A stretch of DNA of 63,491 nucleotides, filler included, from Lenisia limosa (taxonomy: Eukaryota; Protista; Breviatea), in the NCBI GenBank assembly GCA_001655205.1. It is 16 parts of 16 records of this genome, joined end to end, with 100 filler letters (N's around TTAATTAATTAA, not from the genome) between each part and the next. Parts side by side here need not be neighbours in the genome. Positions count along the whole stretch, not along the records: positions 1 to 29,915 come from LPNZ01008654.1; positions 30,016 to 32,722 come from LPNZ01003977.1; positions 32,823 to 33,969 come from LPNZ01006468.1; positions 34,070 to 36,946 come from LPNZ01007852.1; positions 37,047 to 42,600 come from LPNZ01004390.1; positions 42,701 to 45,418 come from LPNZ01009671.1; positions 45,519 to 46,599 come from LPNZ01006791.1; positions 46,700 to 48,491 come from LPNZ01000383.1; 8 more parts are not named here. One strand, written 5' to 3'. Below, piece after piece: positions 15,401 through 60,004 of this stretch. The notes below the pieces were generated by a model that made no database searches, had not been told where the DNA came from, and saw only the letters and a program-made list of their open reading frames with translations. The position numbers and the translations under genes were made by a program. Each line of letters begins with the position of its first letter. The first letter of the stretch is position 1.

Positions 15401-18400
15401 TGTGCACCGTCAGTGATCTCGTTCCTTCGGACTTACCAAGACAAAAAGTCCCTTAGTGCGGCTTATGGAGTAGGCAGCAAGTTTTCTTGGTTGTTATTTT
15501 TAACATTTTCATTAACCCCGTACCACCACCCACCACTCCCATAGCCAATCAACATGAGTTTTTTTGACAGCTTTCTTCCTTGCCCTTCTCCTCCCAGAGT
15601 CGACTAACCTGGTCTTTATGTTTTGTATTAATTTAACCCCCATGTATGTTACAGTTTTTAGCCAATAGAGTTTATTATTATTATTATCAATATCAATTTT
15701 ATTTTGTTTCATACATTCCCATTTCACTTCCCTAGAAGACAAGAACTCCCACTTCTCGATCTTCCCCCCGTCCAAGAACAGCACCTATGAAGTGGGCGGG
15801 GGAATTGAATTGATCAAAAAGGGATTTTTTACCCGTGATTGAGAAAACTCGAGATGAACAGGCAATGTAGTATAATATATGATATCATATATAATTATAT
15901 ATGATATATATAATATATTATATATGTATAGCCGTATGATATGCTCCTCTCTCCTTCATCTCTCCCATCTCCCTCGCCCCTTCACCCTTCCGCTCCCCAT
16001 TTATCCAAAATTATCATTAACAAATAGCGGAGTTGACAGTTTTAGTAAATATGTTGAGTTTGGGCTTGAACAGACCCGAAAACGAGCTCAGAAAGCAAAG
16101 GAAATTTCAGACTCCTCCAAGTCAAGGTCCGCACTACTCTCTGATACTTCCTGTCGTAAACAGGTGGGTTGGCGGAGTGAGAGAAAAGAAGGGTACCTTC
16201 ACGTTCCTAACAAGGAAGTGGGGGCGGAGTAAAACTGCCATGCGTATAATCTGTCATACGTGTTTTTTACCAGTCACTTCTTTACTCGTACAGCCCTGTC
16301 GCAACCCCCAGAAGAAATCCCTGCTTACTGACGAGTCAACAATGCGAATGGTTCGTACCGTGGTTATGAAGATTTTCATATTTACCACCGTGGTTATGAA
16401 GAAGGTGCCCATCTCCCCCTCCAATATTGTCAGCCGACAGAGTTAATTTTGGGTTTTTTGTTTCATAAATTTTTCCAATTTTACCCCCCCCCCCNNNNNN
16501 NNNNNNNNNNNNNNNNNNNNNNNNNNNNNNNNNNNNNNNNNNNNNNNNNNNNNNNNNNNNNNNNNNNNNNNNNNNNNNNNNNAGGAACTTCTCTCCCACC
16601 TCTCTCGCCTCAACTCTCCCCCAGGTATCCATTTAATACTTCCTCAACCAGCATTTGTTATCCCTCTTTTTTCACTGTGTGATCTTGAAGAGGTACTCCG
16701 AGACCATCTTCACGCGAAGCCCACGCGCAGCGTATGAGAGGCATCCAATCCACCCCGTATATTCAGAAACCTAATACCCCTACCCCTCTTCCCGCTGGCA
16801 TTACAAGCCCCAATCGACCAAGTACTGCCCCAAATAGAAATAAAAGGTTGGGGTTTTGTGTTTTATCCAGCTACAATGCTCAACGACAGGAACCTTCGTG
16901 TAATCCTTCATTCCCCCCACTTTAATTGTTCGTTCTCTCATACGAGTGTGTGTTGCCTGCATTAGTATCGTCACAGTGTGTGTTGCCTGCATTAGTATCG
17001 TCATGCATTAGTATCGTCACAGTGTGTGTTGCCTGCATTAGTATCGTCACAGTGTGTGTTGCCTGCATTAGTATCGTCACGGTTCAGAATATCATCAGCC
17101 CAATCCTCTCGTCCTTCGTCCCAACGGACGTCAAGGAACTCAAAACTCTCACAGGTACGCTGCTTTTTCTCAAACAAGGACAATTATTATTTGCTAGTTT
17201 TACACTTAATTGTGTTGTTTCAATTAGTGTCATATAAGAAGATAATATAAAAAAAAGTTAATTTAGATTTAATTTCACATTTATTTTTGTGTTTCCAAGA
17301 AACTAGAATGTGAAAACAACACATAAACGAAATTGATAAGGTGATATCTTGTAAATATTTGGATTCATTTTTCACCCGCTCTCCCCCAGAGTGCATACAG
17401 CCCTCACATGGGTACGCCACCGGCATATCGTCCACGCACAACGTCGGGTCGTGTCCTGTTCTCAGCCTCGCCAGCCTCGCCAAGCCGCCATCTCAGGCTC
17501 AATAACACCGACCCAGGTGGGGATGACTCCATTCATTGCCGTTGCTGTGACATTTTGTCGTATTTTGATTGGTGATAATTTATCCAAACAGGGTCAGGAC
17601 CGGTGGCTGGTACGGAACATGCAGTGCTTGCACAGGGTGGGTTTCCATAATAAAACTTCGGTCTTGACAACTTTTCGTTTGCTCCTCAGTATTAACACTC
17701 AGACTTTCGAGGAGACTATCGATTTATCTAAATGGCATTAAGCCAAAAAAGTTACTATATTAGGCAGTCCTGCCCGACCCGGGGTGCGTGGCAAGCCGCC
17801 ACTGGAAACTGTTGTGAGTTCGGCCGTAATTGGTCCGACGGATGTGGTGACTGCCAGTTATGGCAACTTAAGGCTGCATCAAGACTTGGGAGAGGAGAGT
17901 GATAGGTTGGGAAGATTTCAAATCTGTAACAATGAGGATTGTCAATGTAATTAACTCTTCTTAATGATCTTCCACATTCTCACATTCTATGGTGTCATAC
18001 CTATACAATCATACCATACAACAGCCTTCCATTCAGCTCGGATAAACCACAAAAAGAACCGAAACTGAGCTTAATCTGTGTGATTTTTATAAAAACAATT
18101 ATTTTAAACATAAGAGAGCAATGTGATAATCATATTGATCAAAATCTTCTTAAGTTTTAGTACAAAGTAGTTCAAAAGGTGATGTAACCGAAACTTTTTG
18201 CTCAGATATCCGTGATAATTTTCTGTGTTGGCATCCTGCTTTAACTCATCAGGTCGATTTCAGCTCCACCCGATGATCGTATTTTATCTCGTGATTCCTC
18301 TGCATCTTCTGTATCTCCACATGGCCTTGAACACAAGCCTGCTTTCAATCAAGCTTCCGAAGCTTCCGATAATGAGCTGGACCGGTTGTCTGCACCGGAC

Positions 18401-28777: not shown

Positions 28778-29895
28778 TTAGTTCTTATTGAGCTCAAAGT
28801 ACTTCTTGTCACACTACATAATGAAGGTATATCCCTAAGATATTGTTGAACAGTGAGGTTTGAGGAAATTTCAGACAAATGATATTAAAAGAAAACCCGC
28901 AAACCTTGGTTTCTCCATTGATGAAGCGATAGATGTAACAGGTCACACTTGTGTCGTGGAGTTGGAGGATAATAAAACTTGGGGGTGCTGCAGCACCTCT
29001 AAATGGGGGGTAAAAAAAATACAATAATAAAATTGAGAATTAATTCAATACTATCTTCTCCATTTAAGCAGGTTATAAAATTGAAATCTAGCTCTATTGA
29101 AGGACAAAAAGAAACGTGCGTGACATGAATTTTCTGGAATTGAAACAATATCATTATATACTACATGTATACATGCATATAGCAATGAGAAATAAAAAAT
29201 AAGGCTGTATCTGACCGAAGCCGTCCACATCACGCTTATCAAGAGATATTGGAATACTATATTATATTATATCACACAAATGATATTATCATCATGTACA
29301 TATTATGTAAATGATACATATTATTGTATTATTTATATCACAGTAATATAGAAAGTATCAAGATGATATGAGAGTTATTATGTTGGTGGGGAGCATTCTT
29401 CCAAGATCTTCACTAAAGTATCAGTATTAACCTGATGGGTGCGCCAGTAATGGAACCTGGGGACACGACAATCTTCCCTGCTTGAGCAGACAGTCTCATT
29501 GTTGATGATCCTGGGGGAGGGGGAGTAAAATTGGAAAATTTACGAACAAAAGGGGAGAAAAACGAAGGAAATTCAAAAGGAAATAAAGCACAAGAAGCAT
29601 GTTCCCTTTCATTAGTAACCAGACTTGGAAAAGTGAAGTACACTGAGCAGTACAAATAACAACAATAATAAAAACTGTTTAGTGACTTTTGTTGCCCCCC
29701 CCCCCTCCAAACCAGTTACAAGAATGTCAACATCCATTTCACGAAGGACACCCCATGCACTAAACTGGTAACAAAAACCCAACAAGGTTATTTATACTAC
29801 ATCACATGTAACAAGTATAACATATGTATAGATAATATGATATTATGTGATAATGTATATCACACCGTCCAAATATCTGTGAATTTTCCTCTATC
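28778..29895 (-). CDS. VPS29: Retromer subunit VPS29, 3' part (5' end cut by contig end)
   Basis: LREMDVDILVTG, KIVVSPGSITGAP, PSFIILQLHDTSVTCYIYRFINGETK, then CDKKYFE; TAA at 28778-28780. Confidence 0.8.
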
Positions 29896-34268: not shown

Positions 34269-36746
34269 GGGTGGCGATGGTGTTTCGCTGGATTAGGGGC
34301 TCGAACCCTGAAAATTGNNNNNNNNNNNNNNNNNNNNNNNNNNNNNNNNNNNNNNNNNNNNNNAGCATTTCTAATGCGACTGTTTATTTTATTGTTCTTT
34401 GTTTTGTTTCCCGTATGGTACTGTTTCCTATTGTATAATATATGAGTTTCTTTCCCGATCTGCAATGTTCTCGGTTCTCGAGCTGTTATCTGAAATACCA
34501 TGAACTCAAACTCGAGTGCTTGGGGTTAATTATATTTCAGTGATCATGTGTTCAAGGGTACCCCCATGTTAATCGAATATTTATTTCCAATTTCCAAAGA
34601 ACAAACTATGTGATAATCTAGTCAAAATATAGTGCCATTTGAACAAGATAATGTTTAACGAACGTGTATTAATCGGTACAATGTCCTAAACAGCAATACA
34701 TAATGAGTAGCCGAAAGCCTTTCCATACGCCTGGAAAGCGCTTTGGCCAGCGGGAGAACAAGGTTGATGCTCAAAAAGTAGTGTTTCATGAGTTGGATGA
34801 GGACTTACACCTTTTAGTGGAGCTATATTGAGAAACTCTGGGACCCTGACGACATCTATTCAGAGTTCAGCCCTTTACTTGAGAGTAAGTCATGACAATA
34901 GTGGATTAGGACATACTAATACCCCTTCTAGATGATAATCGTCGGACTGTTCTCGCTTATCGTCTCCTTGACAGGCTTCTCTGCGTCTCTTACGCTCAAA
35001 TTGAGGCAGAGTTTCCGATGTAAGCCACCTAATTTTAGTTTCAGTCTTATCGTGCAGTAAACGTGGAGCTAGTCCCAATATGACCAAGTTCATTGAGAGT
35101 CCAGGTTAGTGCTCTTGAACCAATATTTGCAGCCATAAATGATATTGTGGAGTTTGAGAGGATATAAACTTGAAGTTATATGCAACCCCAAGGGACAGAA
35201 AGTCGTTCATGTGGAAATCACGGAGAGGGTACTTTCCCAAGTTTCCCTTTTTCCATGTTTACATTGTTTCAATCATTTTGTTCATTACCAGGGTTTCTTC
35301 TTTTAAATTTTCTGTTATCTGCGTATGCTTGGTCAATATGAGGGCTTGCGTTTGTATAACAGTGATATTTATATCATAGGTTATCTCAACAACATTTCTA
35401 AACAATACTCTTCTGATGTAAAGTGTCTGCCTTTCCAACCCACGTTCATGGCCCAGATAGCTGTTTTTCATATATTCCTCTTTACCTTTTATATAATATA
35501 TGATATATGATATAATATATTTGTTTCACCCCCCTCGCTGGAGTGCTGGGATGCGGTGCTGCNNNNNNNNNNNNNNNNNNNNNNNNNNNNNNNNNNNNNN
35601 NNNNNNNNNNNNNTCAAAATTTTCCAATTTTACTCCACAGGCATAGTGGATCTTCTTCTAGGACTGGTCTACCGGATAGATCCCGAGATCCCACATCCCA
35701 CTTGTCTCCCAACCCCCCAGCTTATGGATGCGATCAAAATGAAGGGTTGGCGAGTGGGGTGTTTAGATATCTGTTACTGGGCCTATCAAAACCGAGTGTT
35801 TAAAGAAAACCTCGGAGTGTAAGGATTTTCCCATGTTTTTGGGTTTAGATGCGGGCCAATTTTGACCAAAATTCATGGATTGTGGGTTCAGTTAAAGGTT
35901 ACGTAAAATGTGTCCGGTTTAGGTGCTAGCTGAGTCTGGGTAAGGGTTCCTAATTGTTGACAATAATCTTTTCATGTTATTTTCGGAGCTAGGTGAGTAA
36001 TAATATTAGTATTAAATATCTCAGATAAATCGATTTTAAGCTCATATTCTGAAACGTCATATTTGGAAATAGTCCTATTCCCCAATGAGCATGCAATGCT
36101 GACGGCTTGGCATATTACAACCAAATTTGAAATCGACATGGTGATAATGATTCTCCATCTCTAACTGTTAAATATCTTTGATGGTTTAAAAAAAACATAA
36201 AAAAATGGTGATAATATTGGGCAGATTTTGTAGACTAAATATTCAGTGACTTAACCGACAATATCAGGTTTTCAGTAACAATAATCGATTAAGACTTATA
36301 ACTAGGGCTTACCTACAGTCCCAAAAGGGCTGAACTCCTACTATATTTCAATATCTCTTATAAGCGTGAATGTGTGGACGGCTTCGGCCAGATACATCCT
36401 TATTATTATTTCTCATTGCTTTATACCCCCCCATACTATTCCTCATCCCCTTCAGAAGGCCTCCTCCCCCCAATGCCAACAGACGACTGGGCAACCTGTA
36501 GTGTGCAGGCGTTTCAAGCATCTCGGCAGGGNNNNNNNNNNNNNNNNNNNNNNNNNNNNNNNNNNNNNNNNNNNNTCACCAATATACAAAGTCTATTGTA
36601 TCAAAAGAAGAGTCAATTTCAGAAATCAAGGAAATTAATGCACACTTTTTAAGTCACAGAATGGTATATCATACATATTTGAGGTAGCGACTTTTCGTAA
36701 AGTATACACTAAGGTTTCACTAAGGGGTAGGGTGCTGGCCTCCAAG
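34269..36746 (+). CDS. Multi-exon hypothetical fragment, weakly SAPS/PP6-regulatory-like
   Basis: Open GT-AG exons (WSYIEKLWDPDDIYSEFSPLLE, RTVLAYRLLDRLL, AGIVDLLLGLVYRIDPE); family resemblance is from memory only. Confidence 0.45.
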
Positions 36747-38879: not shown

Positions 38880-38910
<31 letters not shown>

Positions 38911-41900
38911 CTCTCTCTTTCTCTCTCTTTCTCTCTCTTTCTCTCTCTTTCTCTCTCTTCCCACACACACACCATTATTCACCACCAGCAATATTCTCAT
39001 CATCACCCAGAACTTTTGCCGACTCTGACGTCATCGCTCTGGGCTGCGGAAGTGGCAAAACCGTCTTGGTGTCAAAAGACTCCGGCCTAGTTGGTTTTTG
39101 GTTTTTCATTCCCCTGTGTGGACGGCTTTGGTTTCTTGTTTTATTTTTATTCTGGTGTTTTTTGTTTTGTTTTGTTTTTTTGTTAAGTCCTATTTTGAGA
39201 TGAACCACTGTTGAAACTTACCAAATAAGGCAACCGCGGAAATCCATAACTCCGACTCCACGAAGGCCGTTAGTTTCCTCAATCCGAAAAACAGTAGGCA
39301 AAGTCTCAAAGTGCCCCCCACCCCACATGCATGCCAGACAAGTTGTAATGGGTGGAGGGGGGAGAACGTAAAAACGAAGTTAATTATGATGATGAGGAGA
39401 AACGTTTGTTTCCTCATCACAGGGGTGTGTGGGAGAAATCGGAAAATTATGAAACAAAACAACATAAAAAAGAAGCCCAAAATCAACTTTTTTGGGCATC
39501 CCTACGATCCCCAAAAAAGAATGAATTTCTCGATAAAATCTTGATAAATATCGACATGTTACCGGCCTTTTTCGGACCATAGGAAGCTCCTAATTATAGC
39601 TATAACCACACCATGATGACTTGGTGAATTAATGTTTTACTATTATCTAATATCTCTTAAAGCGTGATGGCGTGGACNNNNNNNNNNNNNNNNNNNNNNN
39701 NNNNNNNNNNNNNNNNNNNNNNNNNNNNNNNNNNNNNNNNNNNNNNNNNNNNNNAATTTCATATAACTATAACCACCATAGTCACGACAGCTTCCGGTTC
39801 CGATCTGAAGAACTGGTCAATCCAAGACGTCACCAATACGCAAGAGACAACGTGGGGTGATGCGGTCCTATTTTGATCACAATTGAATAAGAAAATCATA
39901 CTATATTAAATAAATCAAGAATACATTGGGATACCATACCATAAATATCGCGGAGCCTCTTCCCCTGAGCACCATAAAAACAGCGCAAAACAGGCTGGAT
40001 TTGATATATTATATGTAGGGCTTCCTAAGGTCCCATAAAAGACCGAATATCTCGATAAATCCTCGATAAATATCTATATTTAAACGGTTATTTTCGTACC
40101 CAAGTGAAGCTTTAATTATATGAACTTATCCCCCTCCCCCCAATAGGAAAGTCACGCTTTTGACCGCAACACCGGACTCGGTAATTACCGTCAACGTTGA
40201 TGGGGAAATTGCTGTACGTTCCCTGGACATGCTTGAAGACGTCAGTGTAGTTCATGAGGGTGGGGTGGGGGGGTAAAATGGAAAATTTATGAAACAAAAA
40301 AGCCCAAAAGCAACTCTGTTAGCTGACAACGTACAAGGGTTGAGAACAACAAAACAAATGTAACAATTGTCTAAAGAGGATTTTGGGTTTTTGTTGTTCC
40401 TTTTTTTAAGACTCTGCGATTAATAGTAACAATACTGTTTCGATTTGAAGTGATAGATGAATTCTTCAAGAGAAATGTTCTGTAAAAGAAACCTGGGGGG
40501 GGGGGTACTTTTACATCTGATAAGTAACTTTTAATAAATATATACACTGTATATCTATATATTGTACTAGATAATACTTCTGAATCTTATTTTCAATTAA
40601 TTCCTTCAAATATATTGCCCAACATTTTTCTCCCCCTCCCCTCATCATTTTTATTCCATTTTTACTCCTCCCTCATAAATGTTCCATTTTAATTTCTCAA
40701 GGCAAGTCATATCCCATCGCACTGGCATCTTTAGCTCAGAAAGTGCTGGTAGCTTTCGCCAACAAAACTCTGGTGGAAATGACCGTGGTGAATGGACAAG
40801 TGGGGGGAGTGTTGGAAAAGTGCGAAATAAAAAACAAGGTTGAATCTGGCCGAAGCCGTCCAGTCCATACCATCACACTTCTCAGAGATATTTTTGTAAT
40901 ATAATTTTAATTCCCCCCCATCATTTGCCTTGCAACTGCACACAGCTTTCTGTGTGCCCCTAATTCTAATAATCTTACTTTGAATTCTTATATCTTATTT
41001 CATGTAATCCAATTTTTACCCGTCAAAGGCCTCAGAAATCAAGACGACGGCACAGTCGAAGTCCTTCATTGCCATTACCCCAGTAACGTCTGGCTTTGTT
41101 GCAGCTGACCAGAGTGGTGCTATTTACGTTGGAGGGAGGAGGGCAGAATATTTTTTATTAAACTTTCCTTCATTTTACCCCATTATTTTATTTTTTCTTT
41201 CATAAATAATTTCCTTTACCGAGTGATGGGATGCGGTGCTGCAGAAGCGACTGACCTGGGGTTTTTTTGTTTCTTTGTTACCCTCGTTCAAATTTTTCAA
41301 AGTTTCCTTCACCCCTCTCCAGATTAATGAAAATAAGATTGGGCAAGTGTCGGGAATAGTTTCAAAACTAGCAGTCTCCAAGGATGGTGAGTTTGGGGAT
41401 GTGTAGTTTTTTGTTGTTATTGTTGTTGTTGTTGTTGGTAGGGCTTCCCTACGGTCCCAAAATAGACTGAATTTTTCGATAAATCCTCGAAAACTATCGC
41501 TATTTTACCGGGGGTTTTTTGAACAGAAGTAAAGCTCTAATTGTTGGGGAGGGGATGTGTTCTCATCACTTCGTATGATCTATAGGGCTTCCCTACAGTC
41601 GAAAAAGACCGTCAAAATATCGATATTTATCGAGGATTTATCGAGAAATTCAGTCTATTTTGGGACCGTAGGGAAGCCCTAATGACTGTTGAGGCATCTA
41701 GAAAGCTGTGTGTACAGAGGTGTAAGGCAAATAATTGGGTACATTAATATTATTTTAATTCAATATCTCACATAGCGTGATAGTGTGGAACTAGATACAA
41801 CCTTTGTTTTTATTTCTCATTGCTTTCTATGATATATTACACTATTAAATCGAAACCCCATTTCTTTTCCAAAGCTTTATTAGTACTAATATATAAAGAG

Positions 41901-42511: not shown

Positions 42512-42700
42512 GTATGTTGGGGAGAGAGATCGAAATGTATTTCTTACAAAACCAACTGAGTTGGGGTTTTTTTTTTTTGTTTTTTTTTCCATAAATGTGC
42601 NNNNNNNNNNNNNNNNNNNNNNNNNNNNNNNNNNNNNNNNNNNNTTAATTAATTAANNNNNNNNNNNNNNNNNNNNNNNNNNNNNNNNNNNNNNNNNNNN

Positions 42701-45181
42701 AGGATCATGTCTCGTCTTTGTTGAGCGGCACGAATCCTGCGATATGCTGAAGGAGCGCCTGGCCTTGGCCGGCTACAAGAGCTGCAAGGTTATCCATGGT
42801 GGAATGGTGAGGGGTGTAGCTTTACTTTGGTTCGGAAAAAACCGGGGAAATATCGATAGTTTTCGAGGATTTATTGAGAAATTCCGTCTTTTTTGTTGCT
42901 GTTGATTAGGGGGATATTTGTTCATTTCCGACCCGCTCTTGTTATTTGTTCATTTCCGACCCGCTCTTGTTATTNNNNNNNNNNNNNNNNNNNNNNNNNN
43001 NNNNNNNNNNNNNNNNNNNNNNNNNNNNNNNNNNNNNNNNNNNNNNNNNNNNNNNNNNNNNNNNNNNNNNNNNNNNNNNNNNNNNNNNNNNNNNNNNNNN
43101 NNNNNNNNNNNNNNNNNNNNNNNNNNNNNNNNNNNNNNNNNNNNNNNNNNNNNNNNNNNNNNNNNNNNNNNNNNNNNNNNNNNNNNNNNNNNNNNNNNNN
43201 NNNNNNNNNNNNNNNNNNNNNNNNNNNNNNNNNNNNGCCAACAGAGTTGTTTTTGGGCTTTTTTATTTTATATATGTATTTTCTAATTTCCCCCCAGGAG
43301 CAAGGAGACAGGGACCAGGCCCTAGTGGACTTCAAGAACGGGACCTTCAACATCCTCATTGCCACCTCCGTCTGTGCTCGTGGACTTCACGTCGATAACC
43401 TCAAGCTTGTCGTCAATTACAACGCGCCGTCCCATTACGAGGTCTGCTAAGTTATGGCTATAATTATTATCATTTCATATGTATCTGGGGAGTATGTGGA
43501 AAGCTGTGTACACAGAGTTAACATATTTAGGCGAATTACTTTAATCATAATATGACCTGTACTACGTCCATTAAAATTTGACAAAATATGACCATTTTAG
43601 CATACTATGACACTTTAGCGTATTAAGTTGACAATTGCATGGGACTACATGCATCAAATTATTGACATAATATGACATTTCAGGACTATTACATCATTAT
43701 ATGACATTTCAGGACTACGTGCATCGAGTTGGTCGAACTGGCCGTGCGGGTAATAAGGGAACCGCCGTCACCATCTTGACTGGTTGGAGGGGGGAGGTTT
43801 ATTATTTCTCGTCAATGACCATACTGAATTTATATGATACTATAATCCAATATAAGCGTGATATTGTGGACGGCTTCAGCCTACAACTTATTTTTTTATT
43901 TATCATTGCTACTATGACCATTATACACAAAATTGGTTATAAAGCAATATGATTAAGGCTTCATTTCGGTTCGAAAACAAGACAAAAATTCTCGATTTCT
44001 TCAGAAAAATCTATTTTTTTTATTGGTCTTTTTCGGACAAATTGAAGCCCTAAATAAGATAACCAAACCCCCCACTCACCCCCTCAATCTACCTACTTCG
44101 TTAACTCGAATAGCGGAGGACGCTGCACTGGCGGCTGACCTCGAAATGGCCTTGGAGCGCAGTGGTACCACATGCCCCGAGGAAATCAAAGATTTGGCTA
44201 AACGTGGGGGGGGGGGGGNNNNNNNNNNNNNNNNNNNNNNNNNNNNNNNNNNNNNNNNNNNNNNNNNNNNNNNNNNNNNNNNNNNNNNNNNNNNNNNNNN
44301 NNNNNNNNNNNNNNNNNNNNNNNNNNNNNNNNNNNNNNNNNNNNNNNNNNNNNNNNNNNNNGACATCATATTATGATAATCCTAGTTTCAATAGAGACTT
44401 TACTACAAAAAAAAAAACTATATTACATACATAGTATATCATATATTACACATGATGATGATCCTTGTTTCAATGGGGACTTTACTGCCAACAACAATAT
44501 TACATATGATAATACTAGTTTTAGATAATCCCATTTAGCGAATTTCACTGTCCTTAGAATTCTCCATTCAGCAACGCCTTGGAGTGGTGCATCGGTTCAA
44601 CGGTTTCAGTGGAAAGGGCTTCAAGTTCGACAAGGAGGAAGCCAACGCCAAGATGCGGGAGAGGAATGCTACTATGGTGGTATGCTTGTTGTGTGTGTTT
44701 TGTACATATCTCCAGGGCTTCACTTCGGTTCGAAAAAAGACTGAATTTTTCGATAAATCCTCGAAAACTATTGATATTTTACCGATCTTTTTCGAACAGA
44801 AGTGAAGCCCTGCATATCTCCCTTCTGATATGTTCCGTGCAATTAAAATATAAATATCTCAGGAGAAACCTGATACTTTAAGAATTTCCTCAAATAATTA
44901 ATTTCACGGAGCCCTGTCTTATCCGATCTTTTTACTCCAAAGCAAAGCTCATATATTTCAGCATTACCCCCCCCCCCNNNNNNNNNNNNNNNNNNNNNNN
45001 NNNNNNNNNNNNNNNNNNNNNNNNNNNNNNNNNNNNNNNNNNNNNNNNNNNNNNNNNNNNNNNNNNNNNNNNNNNNNNNNNNNNNNNNNNNNNNNNNNNN
45101 NNNNNNNNNNNNNGGAGGACGAGGAACCAGCTGCCGTTGAGGAAGAAGAAGACTCAGGCAAGAAGAAGTACCGCTTTGGTG
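42701..45181 (+). CDS. DDX46: DEAD-box RNA helicase DDX46/Prp5, helicase-C and C-terminal fragment
   Basis: [65 protein letters not shown], and the Prp5-typical [10 protein letters not shown]. Confidence 0.9.
43954..44052. mobile_element. Family A hAT-type MITE
   Basis: TAAGGCTTCATTTCGGTTCG...TGAAGCCCTA; flanks AATATGAT / AATAAGAT (7/8). Confidence 0.88.
44713..44812. mobile_element. Family A hAT-type MITE with perfect 8-bp TSD (reference copy)
   Basis: CAGGGCTTCACTTCGGTTCGAAAAA...TTTTTCGAACAGAAGTGAAGCCCTG flanked by CATATCTC on both sides. Confidence 0.93.
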
Positions 45182-45676
45182 GTATTGATGATGCGGATTG
45201 TGGTATGTATGGTTGATGATGATGCGGATTGCTGATGACAAATGTGATGTTTTTGGGTGTTGTTGTTGTTGATGATGATGGTATTGTTGTTGTTGTTGAT
45301 GATGTTGTTGTTGTTAATGTTCTTGATGATGACACTGTAGAGTGTTGACGTTATTAGCGATTTGGGCTTTTTTTTTTTGTTTCATAAATGGTCTATCCTT
45401 CCTTTCCCATTTTTACTANNNNNNNNNNNNNNNNNNNNNNNNNNNNNNNNNNNNNNNNNNNNTTAATTAATTAANNNNNNNNNNNNNNNNNNNNNNNNNN
45501 NNNNNNNNNNNNNNNNNNCTGGGCTTTGTTTGTTTTTTTGTTATCAGCCCTTGTGTCTTTTCAGCCAACAGAGTTGATTTAGGTTTTGTATTTTGTTTCA
45601 AATATTTTCCAATTTTACCCCCCCCCCCTTCTGCTAAGATGTCCTCCCCCCTCTCATTTCATTATGACGCATTTAG

Positions 45677-46490: not shown

Positions 46491-46733
46491 CTATGGCGGT
46501 TAGAATGAGGGGGGATTGGAATATGAAACACAAAAACCCAAATCAACTCTGTTAGGGAAATTATTGAAACGTAAAATTGGAAATTTCAATAGATTATTGN
46601 NNNNNNNNNNNNNNNNNNNNNNNNNNNNNNNNNNNNNNNNNNNTTAATTAATTAANNNNNNNNNNNNNNNNNNNNNNNNNNNNNNNNNNNNNNNNNNNNG
46701 TTTCAAAAGTTTTCCAATTTTACTCCGCCACAG

Positions 46734-48296
46734 GTACGCTCGTACGTTGACGGACACACGATCTTCCAACTAGACCCCGAAGACGCTCTTGAGAAGCTTA
46801 ATGAGGTGGGTGATGGAATATATAGGGCTTCACTTCGGTTCAAAAAAAAGAGACTATATTTCTCGATCGAACTGAAGTGAAGTCATAGGAATGAGTTGGT
46901 TGGGACACTTACTTGGGGTTATGGGTCCCGCATTGGCCACATTACTCCACATTACGCCCCCTTTCTATTATTTTCCATTTCTACGTAACCTCATCCGATA
47001 CAACCGCCTGTTTTTTTTTGTAGTTTCAGATTATTCGTTTCGTGATTAATACCTTTACGCCAGTATTCTTCATCGAAATTTCCTTCATTTACCTCATATC
47101 AACCCCTCAAGCTCCCCCTTTTGCTCTTCCTTAGCAACAATAGTAGTTTTCGCGGATTCTTTTTTCGAACTGAAGTGAAGCCCTAATTATAGTATTATAT
47201 TTCGATTATATTAACATATTTACTCCTAAAATTCCAGGGACTCTCCGTTTGCCAGTCCCTGAAGGCCTCGTTTGACGTCACCCGCGCCCAGGTGAGAACC
47301 ATCATAGTTGAATTTGGGCCTTTTTGTGTCACAGTCTCCAATTTTACTTCCCCTCTTGTGTTTAAAGCCAACAGTTGATTTTGGGCATTTTTTTATCACA
47401 AATTCTCCAAGGAGTGATGGGATGCNNNNNNNNNNNNNNNNNNNNNNNNNNNNNNNNNNNNNNNNNNNNNNNNNNNNNNNNNNNNNNNNNNNNNNNNNNN
47501 NNNNNNNNNNNNNNNNNNNNNNNNNNNNNNNNNNNNNNNNNNNNNNNNNNNNNNNNNNNNNNNNNNNNNNTAAAATATCGATAGCTTTCGATTTATCGAG
47601 AAATTCAGTCTTTTTTTCGAACCGAAGCGAGGTGAAGTCCTACTAATCACTACAGGTTAATGCCGACCCGAACCTCCAACCCTGGCTGTTCGAACCTGCC
47701 GCAGTCTTCGGCCGCCTGGACCTACTCGCCAGTCACCTTGAAGACTGCAGGTGGGATAAAGGGCAAGGGGGGACTCAAAAAGGGGAGTGCCTTGACTTGT
47801 CCTAGCATTTAGATGATTACATCCTACCATTTACAGGGTACTTCAACATTCGTGCTAACTCTCTAGGGACTTGGTTCAGACCAATGTTGAGTTCCGCAAA
47901 TTGGAGCGTATTGAGATCGGAGGCCCCAAGGTGCGACAAGGTTTCATTTCACGTTTTTTTTATACCCTCTTTTGTAGTCAACAGTGTCGATTTTCGTCTT
48001 TTTTTATTTGAAGATTTTTCAAATTTTATCATTGCCTTGTGCCAATAGGTTGATTTTTGCCTTTTTTTTTGTTTCATAAATTTTTAATTTACCCCCCTCC
48101 TCCTCCTCCTCAGGGTCACGTGCTCTCTGCAAACCTGGCAACAGTCTACGAGGAGTTCGTTTCTGCCGCCGCCGTATTTCGGTCTCTCTCCTACGACCCC
48201 CTGGAGCCCGAAAGTACAGAGTTTGCGTCTCAGTACGCGCACTTTACGCGCGTGATCGAAGATCTTGACCTCAGAATCTCGGCTATTTTGGTTCAT
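46734..48296 (+). CDS. Axonemal outer-arm dynein heavy chain (beta/DNAH9-11-17-like), N-terminal stem (DHC_N1) fragment
   Basis: Five in-phase exons: LDPEDALEKL, PWLFEPAAVFGRLD, VEFRKLERIEIGGPKG, VYEEF..SYDPLEPESTEF..IEDLDLRISAIL. Confidence 0.9.
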
Positions 48297-48345
48297 GTTG
48301 GGGGGGGGGGTAGAAATGGAGAATTTTCATTATACTATATATCAC

Positions 48346-48491
48346 TGAGAGATAAAAACTTTGTTTGCATCTGGCCGAAGCCGTCCACACCGTAACGCTT
48401 ATGAGAGATATTGCATTATAGTATAATATTGATTCACCCAATCATTTGCCTTACAACTCTGTGCACACAGCTTTCTGCGTGCCTCCCCAGC
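48346..48491 (-). repeat. Family D repeat, near full length, reverse orientation
   Basis: ATCTGGCCGAAGCCGTCCACAC...CACCCAATCATTTGCCTTACAACTCTGTGCACACAGCTTTCTGCGTGCCTCCCCAGC. Confidence 0.92.
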
Positions 48492-50258: not shown

Positions 50259-50732
50259 CTTTACCCAGGATATCGATGAAGGCGGCGGCGGCGTTGATGG
50301 CCGAGGTCCGCTGGTTCTGTCCAGCCTTACCTTCGGGGGACCTGGGGGGGGGGTAAAATTGGAAAAGTTGTGAAACAAAAAAAAAGCCCAAAATCAGTCA
50401 CGGGGTAAAGGAACTGGGAATTTCAAATTGTATCAACAAATATTTCAAAGACAATACAATTGAAGGTAGTGTGTTCGGCAATTTGTTAATGGTATCCTTA
50501 TGTATAAATTTGTTTCCCAAGATTTATAATGTTTATTATTATTCTTGTCAAAAAAAGATCTAACACCGGGGCAAATATTGCCCGGGTGGAGCGGTAAACA
50601 ATACCATTGACGGTCGGTAGTGTGTTTTAACATTGAGGGGCTAACATTAACAAGGTAGTGGTAGGATCAAACAAGAACCCACCTAAAAAGGATTCTGAGG
50701 GCCGAGTCCATAAGCAGGTTGAAGACCGACGT
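50259..50732 (-). CDS. Helical/HEAT-like protein fragment (possibly the middle of CAND1)
   Basis: Two in-phase exons: TSVFNLLMDSALRILFRSPEGKAGQNQRTSAINAAAAFIDILGK. Confidence 0.45.
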
Positions 50733-51088: not shown

Positions 51089-51225
51089 CCTAGAATGCAA
51101 AATGCCGCATCCCCCCCCCCCCCGNNNNNNNNNNNNNNNNNNNNNNNNNNNNNNNNNNNNNNNNNNNNTTAATTAATTAANNNNNNNNNNNNNNNNNNNN
51201 NNNNNNNNNNNNNNNNNNNNNNNNC

Positions 51226-54200
51226 CACGAAGCAGACACAGAGGAGTGTTCCGCATTTGTTGCCATTGCCGATAGCATCGCCGCCCTCACCAGGGACTTC
51301 CAGACCCCGAGCTACAGCAATGGTGAGGCCGGAAATGAACTGAACTGAACTGAACTGAACTGAATTTCGATTTATTGGTGTCATATTTTATAAATATCTC
51401 ATTTTCCGTTTCTCACGCTAGCAGAACTCGGTAATCTCCTCTCCCCCGCTCTGAAGCTCGCAGCCAACGGTTCGTCCCAGCTCTTCTCCCTCGCAAAGGT
51501 GGGTAAGATGGATACTCAAATTCCTGCTTAATTTGGTACCGACCAATCATAATTGTCGCCCCCCCCCCCACCGCTGGAGTGATGGGATGCGGTGCTGCAG
51601 AAGCGATTGACCGGGCTTTGTTAACTCTCATGGTTGTTGTCAGCAACAGAGTTAATTTTGGGCTTTTTTGTTTTGTAAATTTTCCAATTTTACCCCCTTC
51701 CCTCTTAGATGTTTGCCCCGGTCGCGTCCTTCCCGAAGTGCAAGGAGTCCCTGGCGTTCTGCTCCAAGTCCGTGCTAGAGGCCTCCGCTGAAATCATCGC
51801 CATGGCCAAGAAGGGTGGTGTTGATGCCACTATTTTCAGTACCCTGTCTAGCACTCATAGGTGAGAAGGGATGAGATATTGGTGATTTGTTGGAATTATG
51901 TTTTTATACTTTGTCCAAGTGTTTAACTATCATATGGTTTTATTGGACGAGATTAATATGGTGCAAAGATGGTTTAGTATTGTTGGTGTTGGGGATCGGA
52001 ATATGTTGTTTTTGGTGTTGGTGGAGGACTTTGGGTGTTTTATTGGTATTATTCTTTTTTTATTTTGTCGAAAAGGGCTTAAATAGTATATCAGAGTGGG
52101 CTTCCCATTTTGACGGTCTTTTTCGGACCGAGGGAAGACCTACATATAGTGTTGACGAGATTTTTATGGTTCAAAGATGCTTTAATGGTATTGTTGGTAT
52201 TGGAGATCGAAAAATGTTGTTTTTGGTGTTGGTGGTTTCTATTTGGCACTTTTTTTTGCTATATGATAGGTATTGCTTGTTTTGTTGTGTTGTTTATATT
52301 GCTTGTTTACCTTGATTGTTTTTTGGAGTTTCTGATATTCATCTTCAAAATTTCCTTCATTTTACTCCCTCCAGCAACCTGACCACGAAAATGTCGAGCC
52401 TCCTTGTGGCCTTCGACCGTCTGGCAAAGTTCAGCGTTCTTGACTTCAAGCCCAAAATCGAAGCTGCTGTGTCACAGGTGAGAGATGGGAGAACTGTGTA
52501 TCCTCGAACCTTACTATCTGATGCGGTGCTACAGAAGCGNNNNNNNNNNNNNNNNNNNNNNNNNNNNNNNNNNNNNNNNNNNNNNTGGGTTTTTTTGTTT
52601 CATAAATTTCCAATTTTAATTACCTCCCCTCCCCAGGCCTTCATCCTCCTCTCCACACTGCACAAGCTGCTGAGCGAAGGCGATAAGAACCCCATTCTCA
52701 TGTCAGCCAAGTCTCTTGGCGCTGAAATCCAAAAACTGGCGCGTGTTGGGAGAAAGGTGGGAGAGGACAAAAAGAAGCTGCACTTTGCTTTGCTTTGCAC
52801 CCATCTTCGTTTTACTGAGTTATGTACAGGGGTTTACAGTCCGAAAAAGACTGAGTTTCTTGATTAATCCTCGATAAATATCGATTTTTTAAGGGCTTTT
52901 TCAGACCGTAGGGAAGCCCTAGTTTTGCATGTTCTTCCCCCCGTGTTATTGTAAAACAACCATCTTCTTTCTTTACTACCGATTATACTATGGTTGTTAA
53001 CAACCCCCCGCCCTTTTACTATGTTGCTCTCTTTCCTCCCTCATTTTATAGGTTGCTACTGCCGATCCGGACCCGGACGTGTCACTGCAGTTCCGCCTTG
53101 CCTTGAAGTCTCTTTACTTGGCTATTTCAACCTTCCTGAAGGTACGGGGGGGGGGGGGNNNNNNNNNNNNNNNNNNNNNNNNNNNNNNNNNNNNNNNNNN
53201 NNNNNNNNNNNNNNNNNNNNNNNNNNNNNNNNNNNNNNNTATTCTGGGTAATGAATTATGAGAAAATCATTACTACCATCACCAAAACGACTGAGTTTCT
53301 TGATTCTTTTCGAATCGATATGAATTATTTCCGGACTTTTTCGGACTGAATTGAAGCCCCACTCATAACCAATCAAATATTTGACATGATCACACAATAA
53401 TAAAAAACAAATATTCCTCAGTGTAAGGTACTATGCATTTGCTAATACTTTACAGGGGCTGTCAGCTGCCGCCAAGGAGCCAACCTTCACTGTACCCGCC
53501 ACCCTGGCTCAGAGTGTGACCGCGTTGAAACACTCCGTCTTTACCTTCCAAGTGGGGGGGGGGGGCGTTGCAGAAAGACCGTACTATTTGGCCGATTTCC
53601 ATTTTAGGCAAGTCATATTCCCAAATTTCTTTTTCGGCTAGGTGAAATAATCCCATATATGTATTTCCCTTTCCAGGCTAGTAATACTCCAAAATTTCCA
53701 TTGGTAGGTAATATCCCTACCTTTAGCATTGGAATCAAGCGATATGTGTCCAAACTTCCATTTTAGGACTTTATTCACCACTCTAGGCTATCATGTCTGG
53801 TGTCAACAGCAAATGGGCGCTTATCAACGTGGGAGGTGAAAAACAACTAAAAAAAAAATAATTCAAAAACTGAAAATAAACTAAAAATTAACTTAAAATT
53901 AAAAATAAACTAAAAATTAACTTAAAATTAAAAATTAACTAAAAATTAACTAAAAAACCACATCATATTTACGATTTTAGTCATTTGATATGAAGCAAAC
54001 CACGCCCTACCTCGAAGCCGCTCTCAAGGAGAACGTTGCTGTATGAGGGAGGGGGTACCATTATAAGTTATTATATTTTGCAACATCCCCCGCCGCGCCC
54101 CCTCTTGATGATAGGATGCGCTGCAAGCAATTGGCTGTTTTTTTGTTTTCAAAACTCGTGTGCTGTCAGTTTGTGATTTCTTGTTTCAAAATTTTTCCAA

Positions 54201-55766
54201 TTTTACTCCCCCTCCCCCTAAATTTTGAATTTATGCCGCCCAGAACGCAGACGTCTGCTACGCGGCACATACCGACCTGAAGGAACAAACAGAGTCTATG
54301 GCTATCAGACCATTTGACCTGGCTGAGCTGGCAAGTGGTGTGGGGGGATTGAATAGAGAGAGAGAGAGCTACAACTTTGTTATATTTCTCATTGCTATCA
54401 ATAGGAAATAATATCTACTATGTGTAACCTCCCCCCTTTATGGATTTTTGGCTTCGTGATTAGTACCTTTACGCAAATATTTATTCTTCATCGAATTCTT
54501 CTTCGTTTATCCCCCCCCCCCCCCCNNNNNNNNNNCGGTATTCAATGCGACAACATTCCTTGAGAAGGCCCAAGTCACCCTGCAAGGCACAGGCAAGGCC
54601 GTCAAGAGAGACTTGACCAAGTATTGGGGGTTTTCTGAACAAGAGAAATTAAATACATTAGAAATCTAGGGAAGTGGGGGGGGGGGGGCTTTCACAATTC
54701 TAATNNNNNNNNNNNNNNNNNNNNNNNNNNNNNNNNNNNNNNNNNNNNNNNNNNNNNNNNNNNNNNNNNNNNNNNNNNNNNNNNNNNNNNNNNNNNNNNN
54801 NNNNNNTGGATATTAGAGTGTCTGGGAGAGGGTTCTCGTTATAAATTTTCCGACTTCTCATTTTGAAATTTATTTTTATAATAACTGCACAGAGCCCAAC
54901 GTATTTCCCATTTTCACAGATTGATACAGAAACCCGGATACCACAGGTCTTTTGCCAATGACTGCGCGGACCTTTCCAATCAATATGATAATATATCATA
55001 TGCAGAAATGTCTAGCAATGATAAATAAAAAAACAGAGTTATATCTGATAGAAAATATACTTCTTTCACATTCCTAACATAGTATTCCATCTTATTCCAT
55101 CTTAGGTCATTTGCCGATGTCTGCGCGGACCTTTCCAAGGCCGTGGCCGAGGCCGTCAAGGCCAACCCCCTTGTCGAGATTCACACCATCTCTGCTGCTA
55201 TCTCGTGGGGAGAGGTGTTTTTTGTTTGTTTTTTTAGCATGAGAAGTAATATATGATGAATCTAAGGAAACTTTTTTTCATAAATTTTTCAAGTTTCCCC
55301 CGATACAGTGCTGCAGAAGTGACCGGTCTGGGCCTTTTTTTTGTTTTGTTGTTATCAACCCTCGTGTGTTATCAGCCAACAGAGTTGATTTTGGGCTTTT
55401 TTTATCTTAAATTTTCCAATTTTACCCCCCCCCCCCNNNNNNNNNNNNNNNNNNNNNNNNNNNNNNNNNNNNNNNNNNNNNNNNNNNNNNNNNNNTCTCT
55501 GAAAATTCGAGTTCCGTAGCTGAGGGAAACTACTTCATGATGGCAGGCAACTTGTTGACATCTATCAACTCTCTTCACCAAGTGGGGCACGTTGTGCTTT
55601 ATTATATTGATAAAATATCTATTTTTAATCAATGGATTTGTTTTTGGTATCCCTATGTATTCGTATGTTTTAGATATTTTTATGCATATCTTTCCAATTT
55701 TACTTCCCTAGTCACTTTGTTCGATGTCGAAGGCAGCTGTTGTTGGTAACATTCAAGGCCTCATTA
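51226..55766 (+). CDS. Large Ala/Leu/Ser-rich helical-bundle protein fragment, talin-rod/vinculin-like
   Basis: About 14 in-phase exons giving ~400 aa of amphipathic helices, e.g. ILMSAKSLGAEIQKLARVATADPDPDVSLQFRLALKSLYLAISTFLKGLSAAAKEP; family call is by pattern only. Confidence 0.55.
51337..51365. repeat. (CTGAA)n microsatellite in a ~100-nt intron
   Basis: Direct inspection. Confidence 0.9.
51571..51707 (+). repeat. Family E element, most complete copy, forming an intron 3' end
   Basis: CGCTGGAGTGATGGGATGCGGTGCTGCAGAAGCG...CAGCAACAGAGTTAATTTTGGGCTTTTTTG...TTTCCAATTTTACCCCC..CTTAG abutting an exon. Confidence 0.88.
52827..52921. mobile_element. Family A hAT-type MITE (B-type)
   Basis: Core plus AGACCGTAGGGAAGCCCTA; flanks GTTATGTA / GTTTTGCA (6/8). 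Confidence 0.82.
53850..53958. repeat. A-rich intronic tandem repeat (AAAATTAACT/AAAATAAACT units)
   Basis: Direct inspection. Confidence 0.85.
54446..54525 (+). repeat. Family F intron-3'-end element
   Basis: GCTTCGTGATTAGTACCTTTACGCAAATATT..CTTCATCGAATTCTTCTTCGTTTATCCCCCC; copies at 38148, 47028, 52328, 58430, 58552. Confidence 0.85.
55305..55436 (+). repeat. Family E element at an intron 3' end
   Basis: GTGCTGCAGAAGTGACCGG...ATCAACCCTCGTGTGTTATCAGCCAACAGAGTTGATTTTGGGC...TTTCCAATTTTACCCCCCCC. Confidence 0.88.
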
Positions 55767-55872: not shown

Positions 55873-56591
55873 CATCCTCCCACCAGACACATCTCCGGCG
55901 TCTCTGAAAGGCGCAGCGATTGCAAGGTCTTGGTAGCCGTCCTTGTTGATGTCTCCTGAGGAGTGTTAGTTCCTTGAATTGCGAGGATCATATTGCACCC
56001 CCCCCCCTTCTTTTTCCCAGGGCTTTACTATCGAAAAATTCAGTCTTTTTTTTTGAACCGAAGTGAAGCCCTAGTTATATACCACCCCGCGCCATACCCA
56101 GACAGATCATATTGTAGCCGAAGAAAGAGCCGACTTTGTCACCTTCAAGAGACCATGAAACTTCCCTACTTGGCTGGCCTGGGGGAGAGGTAAATTGGAA
56201 TAATAAAGAAAAAAAGCCCAAAATTAACAAGAAATGTCAAATGTGTATGTTTTATTGGTACTACCATCCTTCCTATGTTGTAACCAATCCCCCAACCGAA
56301 GGGCCCCTGGAGTCCGTAATAGGCATACACCTTTCCAGAGTCGCGGATGTCACCACTGGAAGGTCAGAAAGGAACTTAAAACATTTATTGATTTGTTTTT
56401 TAATTATTTCTTGAGGACCAATTGGCAATTTCTAAAAAAAAAAACATCAGAGCTACATAATATATCATATGTATAATATGTACATGTATGTGTACCTTAT
56501 TCAAATACTTGGGCTTAATGAACAAAAGCAAAGTCCTACCTGTAATAAGGGGCTGAGACGAACACTTCGGGCGTTCCATCACCGTTCATAT
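55873..56591 (-). CDS. FG-GAP repeat (integrin-alpha-type beta-propeller) protein fragment
   Basis: DMNGDGTPEVFVSAPY, SGKVYAYYG, WSLEGDKVGSFFGYNM, GDINKDGYQDLAIAAPF..GGRM across four exons. Confidence 0.88.
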
Positions 56592-58254: not shown

Positions 58255-60004
58255 CTTCGATCAACTCGGACAGTGTTCTGTGTCGATGGTTCTCGCTCCT
58301 GTCTGCTGAGGCTGCTCTGAAGCATTTCGTGGGCGCGGGAGGGGGGTAATTGCTATTCCCTAATCTCCTAGTTGGGCTGATCGTGTTTGTTATTGCTTGC
58401 TTTTTTTTTGTTTTGCTTATTTGGAGTTTCAGATTATTTGGTTCGTGATTAGTACATTTACGGCAATATTCTTCATCGAATTTTCTTCGTTTTACTCCGC
58501 CCTCCCGCAAGTTCTTTGATTGTTTTTTTTTTTTAATTTTGGGATTTTACAATATTCGGTTTGTGATTAGTACCTTTTAGGCTATTCTTCAAATAATTTG
58601 CCATTTTAACTCAACCACCTCCACCCCCTTCNNNNNNNNNNNNNNNNNNNNNNNNNNNNNNNNNNNNNNNNNNNNNNNNNNNNNNNNNNNNNNNNNNNNN
58701 NNNNNNNNNNNNNNNNNNNNNNNNNNNNNNNNNNNNNNNNNNNNNNNNNATCTTGAGCCAGACTATCAAGGCTTCTATCAAACGCCCAGTATGGGGGGTG
58801 TTAAGAGGGTTTATTGGGGGTATATCATATATTTGTTTAGTGGTTTTAGAAAAGTTTTTTTTTTATTGAAATAGGAGGTGTTAATTTGACATATTAGGAC
58901 TCCCTTATTATATTAGGAAACTCCCACTTACCATATTAGGAACTTGTGAAGGAGGTTCAGTTCGGCCCTTTCAAACGCATAGTTGACGATGGGCTTGAGG
59001 TATGCTGAGTAATATCTCCACACCTCCCCCAACGACTATCACCAGTTTATATTAGTGGCTTGTTTGTATTCCATTTTCTTTTTAGTCTTCCACAAATATA
59101 TCTTTCTGATTTCACTCCACCATAGTCGCGTGAGAATGCGTACACACTCCTTGGGGCCTTAGTAGACAGCAATGTTCCGCTCGACAAGCTGGATGGCCTT
59201 ACTAAATGCCTGATTAACGGGCTTCAAGATGTGAATGGTGGGTGGAGGGGGCCCCTCCAAACGCATGCACTAAGGGATAAGCCTTGACCGATTGATTTCC
59301 CAAGGAAAATCGGTTAAGCCTTATATCGATATATGTTGGAGTGGGGGGGGGGGGTCAAGNNNNNNNNNNGACGGGTTCCTTTACTTAGAGAGGACAGATT
59401 CAAGTCTTTTTGTTTTTCTATTTTACCGTTTTGTGGTTATCAACCCTCATGTGTTGCTTGCCAACAGAGTTGATTTTGGGGTTTTTTTATTCATAAATTT
59501 TCCTATTTTACCCCCCCCCCCCCAGAAATTGCTCTGAATTGTCTGCGCATTTTCCGCAGAGTCGCCAAGGTTGATGCCTCGNNNNNNNNNNNNNNNNNNN
59601 NNNNNNNNNNNNNNNNNNNNNNNNNNNNNNNNNNNNNNNNNNNNNNNNNNNNNNNNNNNNNNNNNNNNNNNNNNNNNNNNNNNNNNNNGTGAAGGAATGT
59701 TATTATTGCTCAAAGTGGAAGTGTAGGGATTTTTTTGATATTACTATTTTTTGATGGGGGAGGGATTACAATGTGCTTTTTGAGATTCATCATCATCAGG
59801 ATAACCACCACTTTCATCATCATCACCATCAACATCACCAACAACCATCACCTCTTTTTTTTTTGAACACCGGCGATTTAATTTATCATAACTATTAGCG
59901 AAAGGAAGGCAAATATAACTTTTAACTCCTCAGACTCGAAGAACCTCAGTGTGTGTCTCAAGACCATCATCAACCGCAAAGCGAAGGAGAGCGATAGTGA
60001 AGAG
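58255..60004 (+). CDS. CAND1: Cullin-associated NEDD8-dissociated protein 1, C-terminal fragment
   Basis: ELVKEVQFGPFKRIVDDGLESRENAYTLL..LINGLQD and LKTIINRKAKES match the CAND1 C-terminus (EVEMGPFKHTVDDGL). Confidence 0.88.

Follow-up and report, generated by a model that had tools for sequence, protein, structure and literature searches.

An intron-resident repeat family in Lenisia limosa that may take over existing 3' splice tracts

In the breviate Lenisia limosa, a repeat of about 140 nucleotides (nt), here called family E, forms the 3' end of introns in unrelated genes. The window in which it was studied, the whole stretch of DNA analysed (63,491 nt, spacers included, from assembly GCA_001655205.1), consists of 16 scaffolds, of which the longest (29.9 kb) carries compact genes and the other 15 (1 to 5.5 kb) are rich in repeats. 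We propose, with a probability of roughly 55%, that E is a non-autonomous mobile repeat. Introns that already existed would have received copies of it in the C-rich runs at their ends, and these copies are now the likely source of the introns' branch region and pyrimidine tract. An earlier note on this DNA had suggested that E either creates introns or donates their 3' ends. The second part of this suggestion stands, as E is a dispersed repeat of the mobile type that most likely supplies the pyrimidine tract and branch region. The creation of introns by E is unsupported in the window: the two-boundary test failed in all 16 introns that hold E, an older-looking 3' end lies upstream of E, and one antisense copy sits at a donor. 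We would class E among the intron-resident mobile repeats, as one that takes over 3' splice tracts, and not among Introners.

Position and orientation of E in introns

Read from 5' to 3', E consists of a G-rich head followed by a T-rich middle and a core; its tail ends in TTTTAC and leads into a C-run. GT-AG introns were modelled by hand and kept if their exons joined in a stop-free frame, which gave 67 introns; figures based on 66 introns, and those on donors and acceptors, upstream sequence, end pairing, junction repeats and the position of E within the host remainder, come from an earlier model set that includes two wrong SAPS-like introns. E is present in 16 of the 67 introns (11 modelled genes), 15 times in sense and once in antisense orientation. 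In 12 of these 16 introns it ends within 30 nt of the AG, compared with one of seven for repeat family A and one of 11 for repeat family B, two other intronic repeats that served as controls. In two of the four E introns outside this distance, an assembly gap or the score threshold cuts off the end of E. In the earlier set the difference was 12 of 15 against 2 of 18 (Fisher p=9e-5). The earlier note's statement that E ends at or near the acceptor holds for most introns and fails for the copies at 47299-47425, which lies 230 nt from the AG, and 38045-38110, which is followed by another repeat. Where E ends 2 to 14 nt before the AG, it makes up at least the last 40 bases of the intron and thus provides the tract and likely the branch point. 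C-rich acceptors are found in 9 of the 16 E introns versus 10 of 50 non-E introns. The E tail carries the motif T[AGT]AC, which 37 of 51 non-E introns have within their last 40 nt, compared with 55 of 184 interior windows.

The placement of E is not random, a point on which the earlier note had made its proposal depend. Of 24 matches, 21 are in the sense orientation of the host gene, two are antisense and one is unassigned (p=7e-5), so the bias is strong and not absolute; the earlier note had seen the matching orientation and missed the antisense copies at 40262-40359 and 39422-39495. Intron phase shows no clear bias (9/5/1 for E introns, 23/16/11 for the others). Possibly, E inserts randomly and selection spares only the sense copies at acceptors. 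This would account for the few antisense copies despite the fact that G-runs are common, and introns are short (repeat-free median of 130 nt), which puts any insertion near an end. We consider this explanation quite improbable. Insertions in the middle of introns are tolerated, as 16 of 18 insertions of families A and B are found there and A occurs in both orientations (10:4), so the middle should not have been emptied of E. Moreover, the position of E within the host remainder of the intron is non-uniform (Kolmogorov-Smirnov p=3e-5, 14 introns), and selection in mammals depletes transposable elements beside exons (PMC3088655).

What lies upstream of E resembles the end of an intron. With a 3'-end matrix derived from non-E introns, the score of the 22 nt before E is 1.4, that of true ends 1.8 and that of intron interiors -3.6 (14 versus 312 windows, p=2e-5); three of 17 E sites were excluded from this comparison on account of a gap, a 7-nt remainder and a mid-intron position. 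At least five C residues are present in the last 12 nt upstream of E at 8 of 14 sites, compared with 6% of interior windows. Directly before the E at 56229 there is a TGAC motif of the ordinary kind, together with its tract. The heads of E are preceded by a C-run (35536, 51572, 54106) or by the tail of another E (41219, 47411, 55302), and such tail-to-head joints also occur outside the window, in contigs of the DNA run X1 described below. C-rich runs flank E on both sides in 8 of 14 copies, and no unique duplicated word was seen in this check for target-site duplications (TSDs).

No exon residues are lost at two E introns, those of DDX46 and dynein. Conversion of the upstream exon into intron by insertion of E was also considered and was dropped, as no residues are missing at either gene; the exons of CAND1 and VPS29 had no PDB match with which lost residues could be checked.

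Structure and abundance of the E family

Family E was recovered by fuzzy matching, by a repeat finder and by self-BLAST. A 145-column profile of E has 30 matches in the window at an E-value of 1 or below and 24 at 0.01 or below, with a best score of 123 bits, whereas 20 local shuffles reached at most 9 bits and the reversed sequence had no match. Four of the 24 matches lie on the long scaffold and 20 on the short ones. Their identity to the consensus ranges from 76 to 97% (median, 91%), and the best pairs over at least 60 nt are 87-91% identical, which agrees with the degenerate state ascribed to E earlier. Copies within a gene are not more similar to each other than copies in different genes (median of 0.86 in both), and local duplication within genes was rejected on this basis as the source of E spread.

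The two ends of E behave differently. All 22 of the 3' ends with an ungapped side reach profile column 128 or later, whereas the 5' ends vary in position, with column 12 or earlier attained by only 5 of 20. The head, which was said to be present often, is thus found in a quarter of the copies that could be judged. Two public runs of one study, both in the form of contigs, contain this stretch: X1, taken here as a DNA run, and X2, which is polyA RNA. Sampled words of the window are found at 87% in X1 and at 9% in X2, and X1 may be the source of the assembly. Exactly at the E head at 51572, 82 X1 contigs stop matching, and this sharp shared 5' border argues for E being a discrete element. To the 4.5-kb scaffold at 51225-55766, 9,509 of 195,906 X1 contigs could be aligned. 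Summed depth in the E core reached 561,650, compared with 14-39 for long single-copy contigs; this sum is inflated by overlapping short contigs and does not represent a copy number. It indicates that the family has at least hundreds and probably thousands of copies.

The alignment of E shows no inverted ends of the terminal inverted repeat (TIR) type. E folds no better than shuffled sequences on either strand (z from -1.3 to +2.1, eight strands) and has no hairpin above shuffles. Scans with exact patterns found three isolated 20-mers without E flanks in metagenomes and nothing in viral contigs or prokaryote genomes.

Relation to Introners

Introner screens demand similarity that extends to both splice boundaries and in this way exclude secondary insertions, so cases of the E type are filtered out by them (PMC9860276; PMC12130899, in the parts of these papers at hand). 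When E introns are compared in pairs, similarity is seen over the last 40 nt in 33 of 78 pairs. Over the first 40 nt it is seen in 2 of 105, fewer than expected by chance. Between 5 and 69% of an intron is taken up by E, and none of the 16 introns consists of E from end to end. Except for a tandem at +6 and an antisense copy at +2, the distance from the donor to the start of E is 41-436 nt; copies that bear a head begin at least 41 nt after the donor. Unrelated host sequence is present on the 5' side of every E intron. The earlier note had proposed looking for TSDs at the exon junctions: none was found, the junction repeats of E introns (3.40) being like those of non-E introns (3.43). The two ends of the same intron also pair no better than the ends of different introns (p=0.17). 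As the sequence upstream of E resembles a true 3' end, E looks like a secondary insertion, although this evidence is indirect because the borders were drawn by eye. One-sided similarity, a cover of at most 69%, the absence of junction repeats and of end pairing, and unremarkable folding together lead to the conclusion that E, in this window, is not an Introner by the working definition. We also considered whether the G-rich starts and C-rich ends of introns are relic TIRs of one element, and rejected this because their correlation within introns is low (rho of 0.08) and there is no matched pairing.

It is unlikely, in our opinion, that E is nevertheless a true or decayed Introner, of which full copies with a donor-like 5' end enter exons and create introns while the window holds only old or nested copies. 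In favour of this, the genes are very intron-rich and the sense bias is strong. The G-rich head of E resembles the local donor context, and the loose ends GTA and AG-GT (see below) would give a donor of the GTNNG type. The one-sided similarity, the partial cover, the distance of the heads from the donor and the two negative results on junctions and end pairing stand against it, however. In addition, the copies inspected have no AG immediately upstream of the head, none of the 13 introns of the UDP-glucose dehydrogenase (UGDH) gene holds E, and the consensus of the loose ends is weak and comes from unrelated flanks.

A model for the spread of E

In the takeover that we favour, copying would start at a C-run, from the 3' end of E, by target-primed synthesis, as in short interspersed elements (SINEs) that ride on a retrotransposon without long terminal repeats (a non-LTR retrotransposon), and it would often stop early. 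With a C-run as the target, E would enter acceptor tracts and sites behind older copies, where tandems would arise, and would enter the G-runs of donors in antisense. The old tract would be displaced upstream, and its AG would pass to the new end. Insertions at acceptors would be tolerated because E brings its own TTTTAC and C-run, whereas antisense insertions at donors would mostly be removed. This single rule of copying from a C-run, with the 3' end of E first and an early stop, covers the truncation, the upstream tracts, the tandems and the antisense copy at a donor.

A more far-reaching version, which we regard as possible and hold only tentatively, is that E is a mobile cassette of 3' splice signals that homes to C-rich acceptor tracts of existing introns. 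In repeat-rich genes, up to a quarter of the introns would have had their branch site and tract replaced by E, and the number of introns would not have grown. An occasional insertion into an exon, with use of the donor-like 5' end, would then make E a precursor stage of an Introner.

E may also be a much-copied template and not a transposon. Breaks at C- or G-runs would be repaired by microhomology-primed synthesis from the C-run of another intron, and upstream E, or another repeat called family C, would be copied to a variable length. This predicts the same polarity, C-run flanks and tandems, as well as the absence of TSDs, TIRs and a promoter. Family C is equally sense-biased (six of six), and E, C and their tails are interleaved at 29515-29580, 38045-38209 and 41150-41311. 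The sharp 5' border defined by the 82 X1 contigs at 51572 and the very high copy number fit a discrete element better, and the likeness between the tails of E and C, visible by eye, is not significant against block shuffles (p=0.25). We therefore think that repair templating is an improbable origin of E.

Several observations weigh against the takeover of existing intron ends. No empty E site was seen. The profile was built from 11 seed copies that are mostly tail-bearing, and seed bias is possible for the polarity of the 3' end. The 5' borders of E were set by eye, and several of the tracts upstream of E are decayed tails of E or C, which inflates the score of the presumed older ends. G-runs of at least five exceed C-runs of that length on the sense strand of non-E introns (23 versus 13), so targeting alone predicts many more antisense copies than two and an extra asymmetry, through selection or a mechanism with a strand bias, must be assumed. 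No tRNA was found in E by a tRNA search, there was no Rfam match at an E-value of 1 or below, and no other head of the RNA polymerase III (Pol III) type was seen, although a decayed head would be missed. Neither a mobilising enzyme nor a partner element or reverse transcriptase was present among the open reading frames scanned (36 + 31). With no Pol III-type head or partner enzyme, retroposition and repair-templated copying are not distinguishable. The loose ends at the E head in the 82 X1 contigs have an AT-rich consensus ending in GTA with an agreement of 0.45, and two X2 contigs end in AG-GT just before the head with an agreement of 0.63, the value expected of two unrelated sequences. Such ends fit, weakly, copies of E elsewhere that span a whole intron with a donor of the local GTNNG type. 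Finally, 63 of the 67 introns are supported by continuity of the reading frame alone.

Repeats shared between introns are usually sorted either into Introners or into neutral passengers, and E fits neither group. Its copies cluster where introns are under the strongest constraint, and they probably function there. If this is true genome-wide, constitutive 3' splice signals can be replaced and made uniform by a repeat on a large scale, and E would represent a state half-way between passenger and Introner, a class that Introner screens discard by design.

Individual copies of E

The clearest copy lies in the RNA-confirmed GT-AG intron 51499..51708 (+), in which 73 nt of unrelated host sequence, with a C-run at its end, are followed by a full-length E (51572-51701) that makes up the last 137 nt. 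On the same scaffold, E appears as a head, a gap and a tail at 52519..52633 (+), at the acceptor of intron 52478-52636, and with its core deleted at 54106..54217 (+) (74 bits), where it follows a C-rich tract and ends 26 nt before the AG of intron 54041-54243. A tail that starts at 55272 is followed by a near-full E (55302-55436); together they span 55272..55436 (+), score 123 bits and belong to the donor at 55205, and the C-run enters a gap. A short E-like tail at 55690..55711 (+), below the profile threshold, is the acceptor of intron 55582-55711.

In genes with recognisable products, the core and tail of E form the acceptor of the DDX46 intron 42807-43297 (43237..43295, +), whose flanking exons join without a gap when compared to homologues. 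The middle, core, tail and C-run at 59428..59522 (+) (87 bits) form the acceptor of the CAND1 intron 59238-59525. At 56182..56228 (-), the end of the core and the tail form the acceptor of the FG-GAP intron 56296-56179, with a TGAC motif and tract upstream, as at ordinary 3' ends. The dynein gene has a tail at the acceptor near its scaffold start (46700..46730, +), a head-to-tail tandem (core-tail, core-tail, head) at 47299..47425 (+) that begins 6 nt after the donor and ends 230 nt from the AG, and two tandem core-tail units at 47966..48100 (+) that end 14 nt before the AG of intron 47931-48113. A weak antisense match at 48300-48367 (8.7 bits) is within the range of the shuffles.

The remaining sense copies differ in age and completeness. 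An old, near-full-length E at 11070..11187 (-) (16 bits, 76% identical to the consensus) ends 10 nt before the AG of intron 11230-11060, and an old E at 15595..15731 (+) (14 bits) ends 4 nt before the AG of intron 15470-15735 in the ankyrin-repeat gene. A 5'-truncated copy with core, tail and C-run at 16424..16494 (+) (64 bits) has a C-rich tract upstream and enters a gap, with the AG on its far side. The tail alone, at 29513..29550 (-), forms the acceptor of intron 29712-29511 of the VPS29-like gene, with a family-C-like tail upstream. In the SAPS-like gene, a head preceded by a C-run, a gap and a tail occupy 35536..35636 (+) at the acceptor of intron 35105-35640. The core and tail at 38045..38110 (+) (44 bits) lie mid-intron, between half of a family B element and a family C copy. 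At 41219..41311 (+) (62 bits) the head and middle remain and the core is deleted; an E-like tail lies upstream, and the copy ends 11 nt before the AG of intron 41128-41322. The middle, core and tail at 45519..45628 (+) (86 bits), at a scaffold start, end 48 nt before the next modelled AG. A core with a short tail at 46510..46555 (-) ends about 19 nt before the AG of a minus-strand exon without identity, and the end of the core with the tail at 50344..50396 (-) is the acceptor of intron 50682-50342.

Both antisense copies lie in a plus-strand gene. At 40262..40359 (-) (84 bits), the C-run of E is the G-run after the donor GT at 40260; of all the GT dinucleotides on the scaffold, this one has the second-highest score with a donor matrix trained on other genes. 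The core and tail at 39422..39495 (-) (25 bits) have a G-rich end that coincides with a donor-like GT at 39425.

E is present at all 13 places listed in the earlier note, on the strand of the host gene. Some of these copies are fragments, as in the VPS29-like gene (a 36-nt tail at 29515-29550) and the SAPS-like gene (head and tail around a gap), and those at 16424, 52518 and 55305 touch assembly gaps. The list had missed the sense copies at 11070-11187, 15595-15731, 38045-38110, 41221-41311, 45519-45628, 46700-46730, 47299-47425, 47966-48027 and 55272-55301. Among its gene labels, DDX46, dynein heavy chain, FG-GAP and CAND1 (TIP120) are supported by databases, whereas talin-like, SAPS-like and VPS29 gained no support from single-exon searches; the ankyrin (ANK) label rests on repeats read in the joined translation.

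Gene models and other repeats

The scaffolds are separated by 15 artificial spacers (N44-12nt-N44, the 12 nt having stops in all frames) between 29916 and 61331 of the window, and genes on different scaffolds are not neighbours. A G- or C-run of at least five adjoins 13 of the 31 remaining gaps. RNA contigs confirm four introns on scaffold 51225-55766, the one stretch to which they were aligned (51323-51424, 52757-53051, 54621-55105 and the E intron 51499-51708), and the latter is spliced at the predicted GT and AG. The joined translations of UGDH and DDX46 align with homologues across the junctions. The dynein exons that flank E intron 47931-48113 match neighbouring stretches of PDB 7kzm_B, namely residues 433-453 (a weak match, E-value of 1.6) and 454-513. 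The presence of an axonemal dynein heavy chain gene indicates a flagellated organism. For the gene at 37047-42600, the plus strand is supported by eight exons that join with no stops, compared with 16 and 18 in the other frames, and by splice-site scores; database searches gave no credible homologue, with chance matches to PAS and Ig-like repeats.

Genes are very intron-rich, with 13 introns in the 1.4-kb UGDH reading frame and a median internal exon of 84 nt. Position +5 is G in 60 of 66 introns, and +3, +4 and +6 are loose. A G-rich stretch follows the donor in 32 of 66 introns, equally in E and non-E introns. The 13 introns of UGDH (801-3926) are short and unrelated. One exon of this gene has, among the 120 matches listed, named matches that are bacterial and nearly all from Bacteroidota. 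If UGDH is of bacterial origin, all 13 introns are gains and none of them holds E. One DDX46 intron has a tandem duplication of its acceptor region (43665-43720), which gives two similar AG sites about 30 nt apart, and at a tandem TAG-CAG acceptor (51419-51424) the RNA contig uses the second AG. Intron 53834-53967 consists almost entirely of an A-rich minisatellite of 11/18 nt.

Three other repeat families are present in the introns. Family A is a repeat of about 150 nt with 15 matches, 10 sense and four antisense (2332-2447, 36778-36911, 40820-40960, 41686-41825, 48343-48491 and others); one of its ends is a C-run plus AG on the other strand. Family B is a palindromic miniature inverted-repeat transposable element (MITE) of about 100 nt with TAGGG-like ends that lies mid-intron (44713-44811, 40016-40113, 41438-41539 and about 20 more). 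Three of the 11 copies checked have flanking duplications of 9, 8 and 7 nt, as in hAT elements, and the only Rfam matches, weak and microRNA-like, are on its hairpins. Family C has six matches, all sense, several of which end at acceptors (38119-38209, 47007-47100, 52287-52372, 54438-54523, 58403-58626). With a tail that resembles that of E, it is a possible sister family, although a homologous tail was not retained as a result because the likeness is not significant.

Comparison with known systems

E shares with Introners, as described in the available parts of three reports (PMC9860276; PMC12130899; bioRxiv 2020.10.14.339549), a multi-copy presence in introns of unrelated genes, an orientation that follows the gene and an extension to the 3' splice site. 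It differs from them in that it reaches one boundary only, has unrelated host sequence before every acceptor copy, lacks junction TSDs and TIRs, and includes antisense copies. The introners of Amoebophrya have inverted and direct repeats at both ends, which E lacks (PMC7789003, in the part consulted). Secondary insertion into introns is shared with MITEs, but E has neither TIRs nor TSDs of fixed length, both of which are detectable here in family B; family B in turn shows no 3' bias, whereas E has a strong 3' and sense bias. Helitrons have a 5' TC end and a 3' CTRR end with a subterminal hairpin. A non-autonomous Helitron does not describe E well, as no hairpin rises above shuffles and a CTAG end is present at 15735 and 55711 only. 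In mammals, transposable elements are depleted next to exons, the opposite of E (PMC3088655, in the portion available). No case like E appears in the accessible sections of a review of transposon-derived introns (PMC11282704), and the open-licence literature, searched with few wordings and without the supplements of Introner surveys, gave no description of a repeat family that occupies intron 3' ends as E does.

Elements that target simple repeats exist, such as the non-LTR elements Waldo, Mino, Kibi, Koshi and Dong, the Helitron MINE-1 and the MITE Micron (PMC3812793, as far as this source was available). E resembles them in its presumed insertion into a simple repeat. It differs from them in its supposed target, mononucleotide C-runs that are also splice tracts, and in being a non-coding element of 140 nt for which no partner enzyme was found. 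Non-LTR elements, like E, have a fixed 3' end with 5' truncation. With SINEs, E shares the fixed 3' end with a simple-sequence tail and the variable 5' truncation (22/22 versus 5/20), without the Pol III head derived from tRNA, 5S or 7SL RNA (Rfam and tRNA searches). In antisense Alu exonization, the pyrimidine tract and acceptor context likewise come from a short repeat, which opens new, mostly alternative exons inside long introns. E, unlike Alu, is found at the acceptors of conserved coding exons and leaves the protein unchanged. By analogy, E would work most like a non-autonomous element that targets simple repeats, with an effect like the donation of a pyrimidine tract by Alu.

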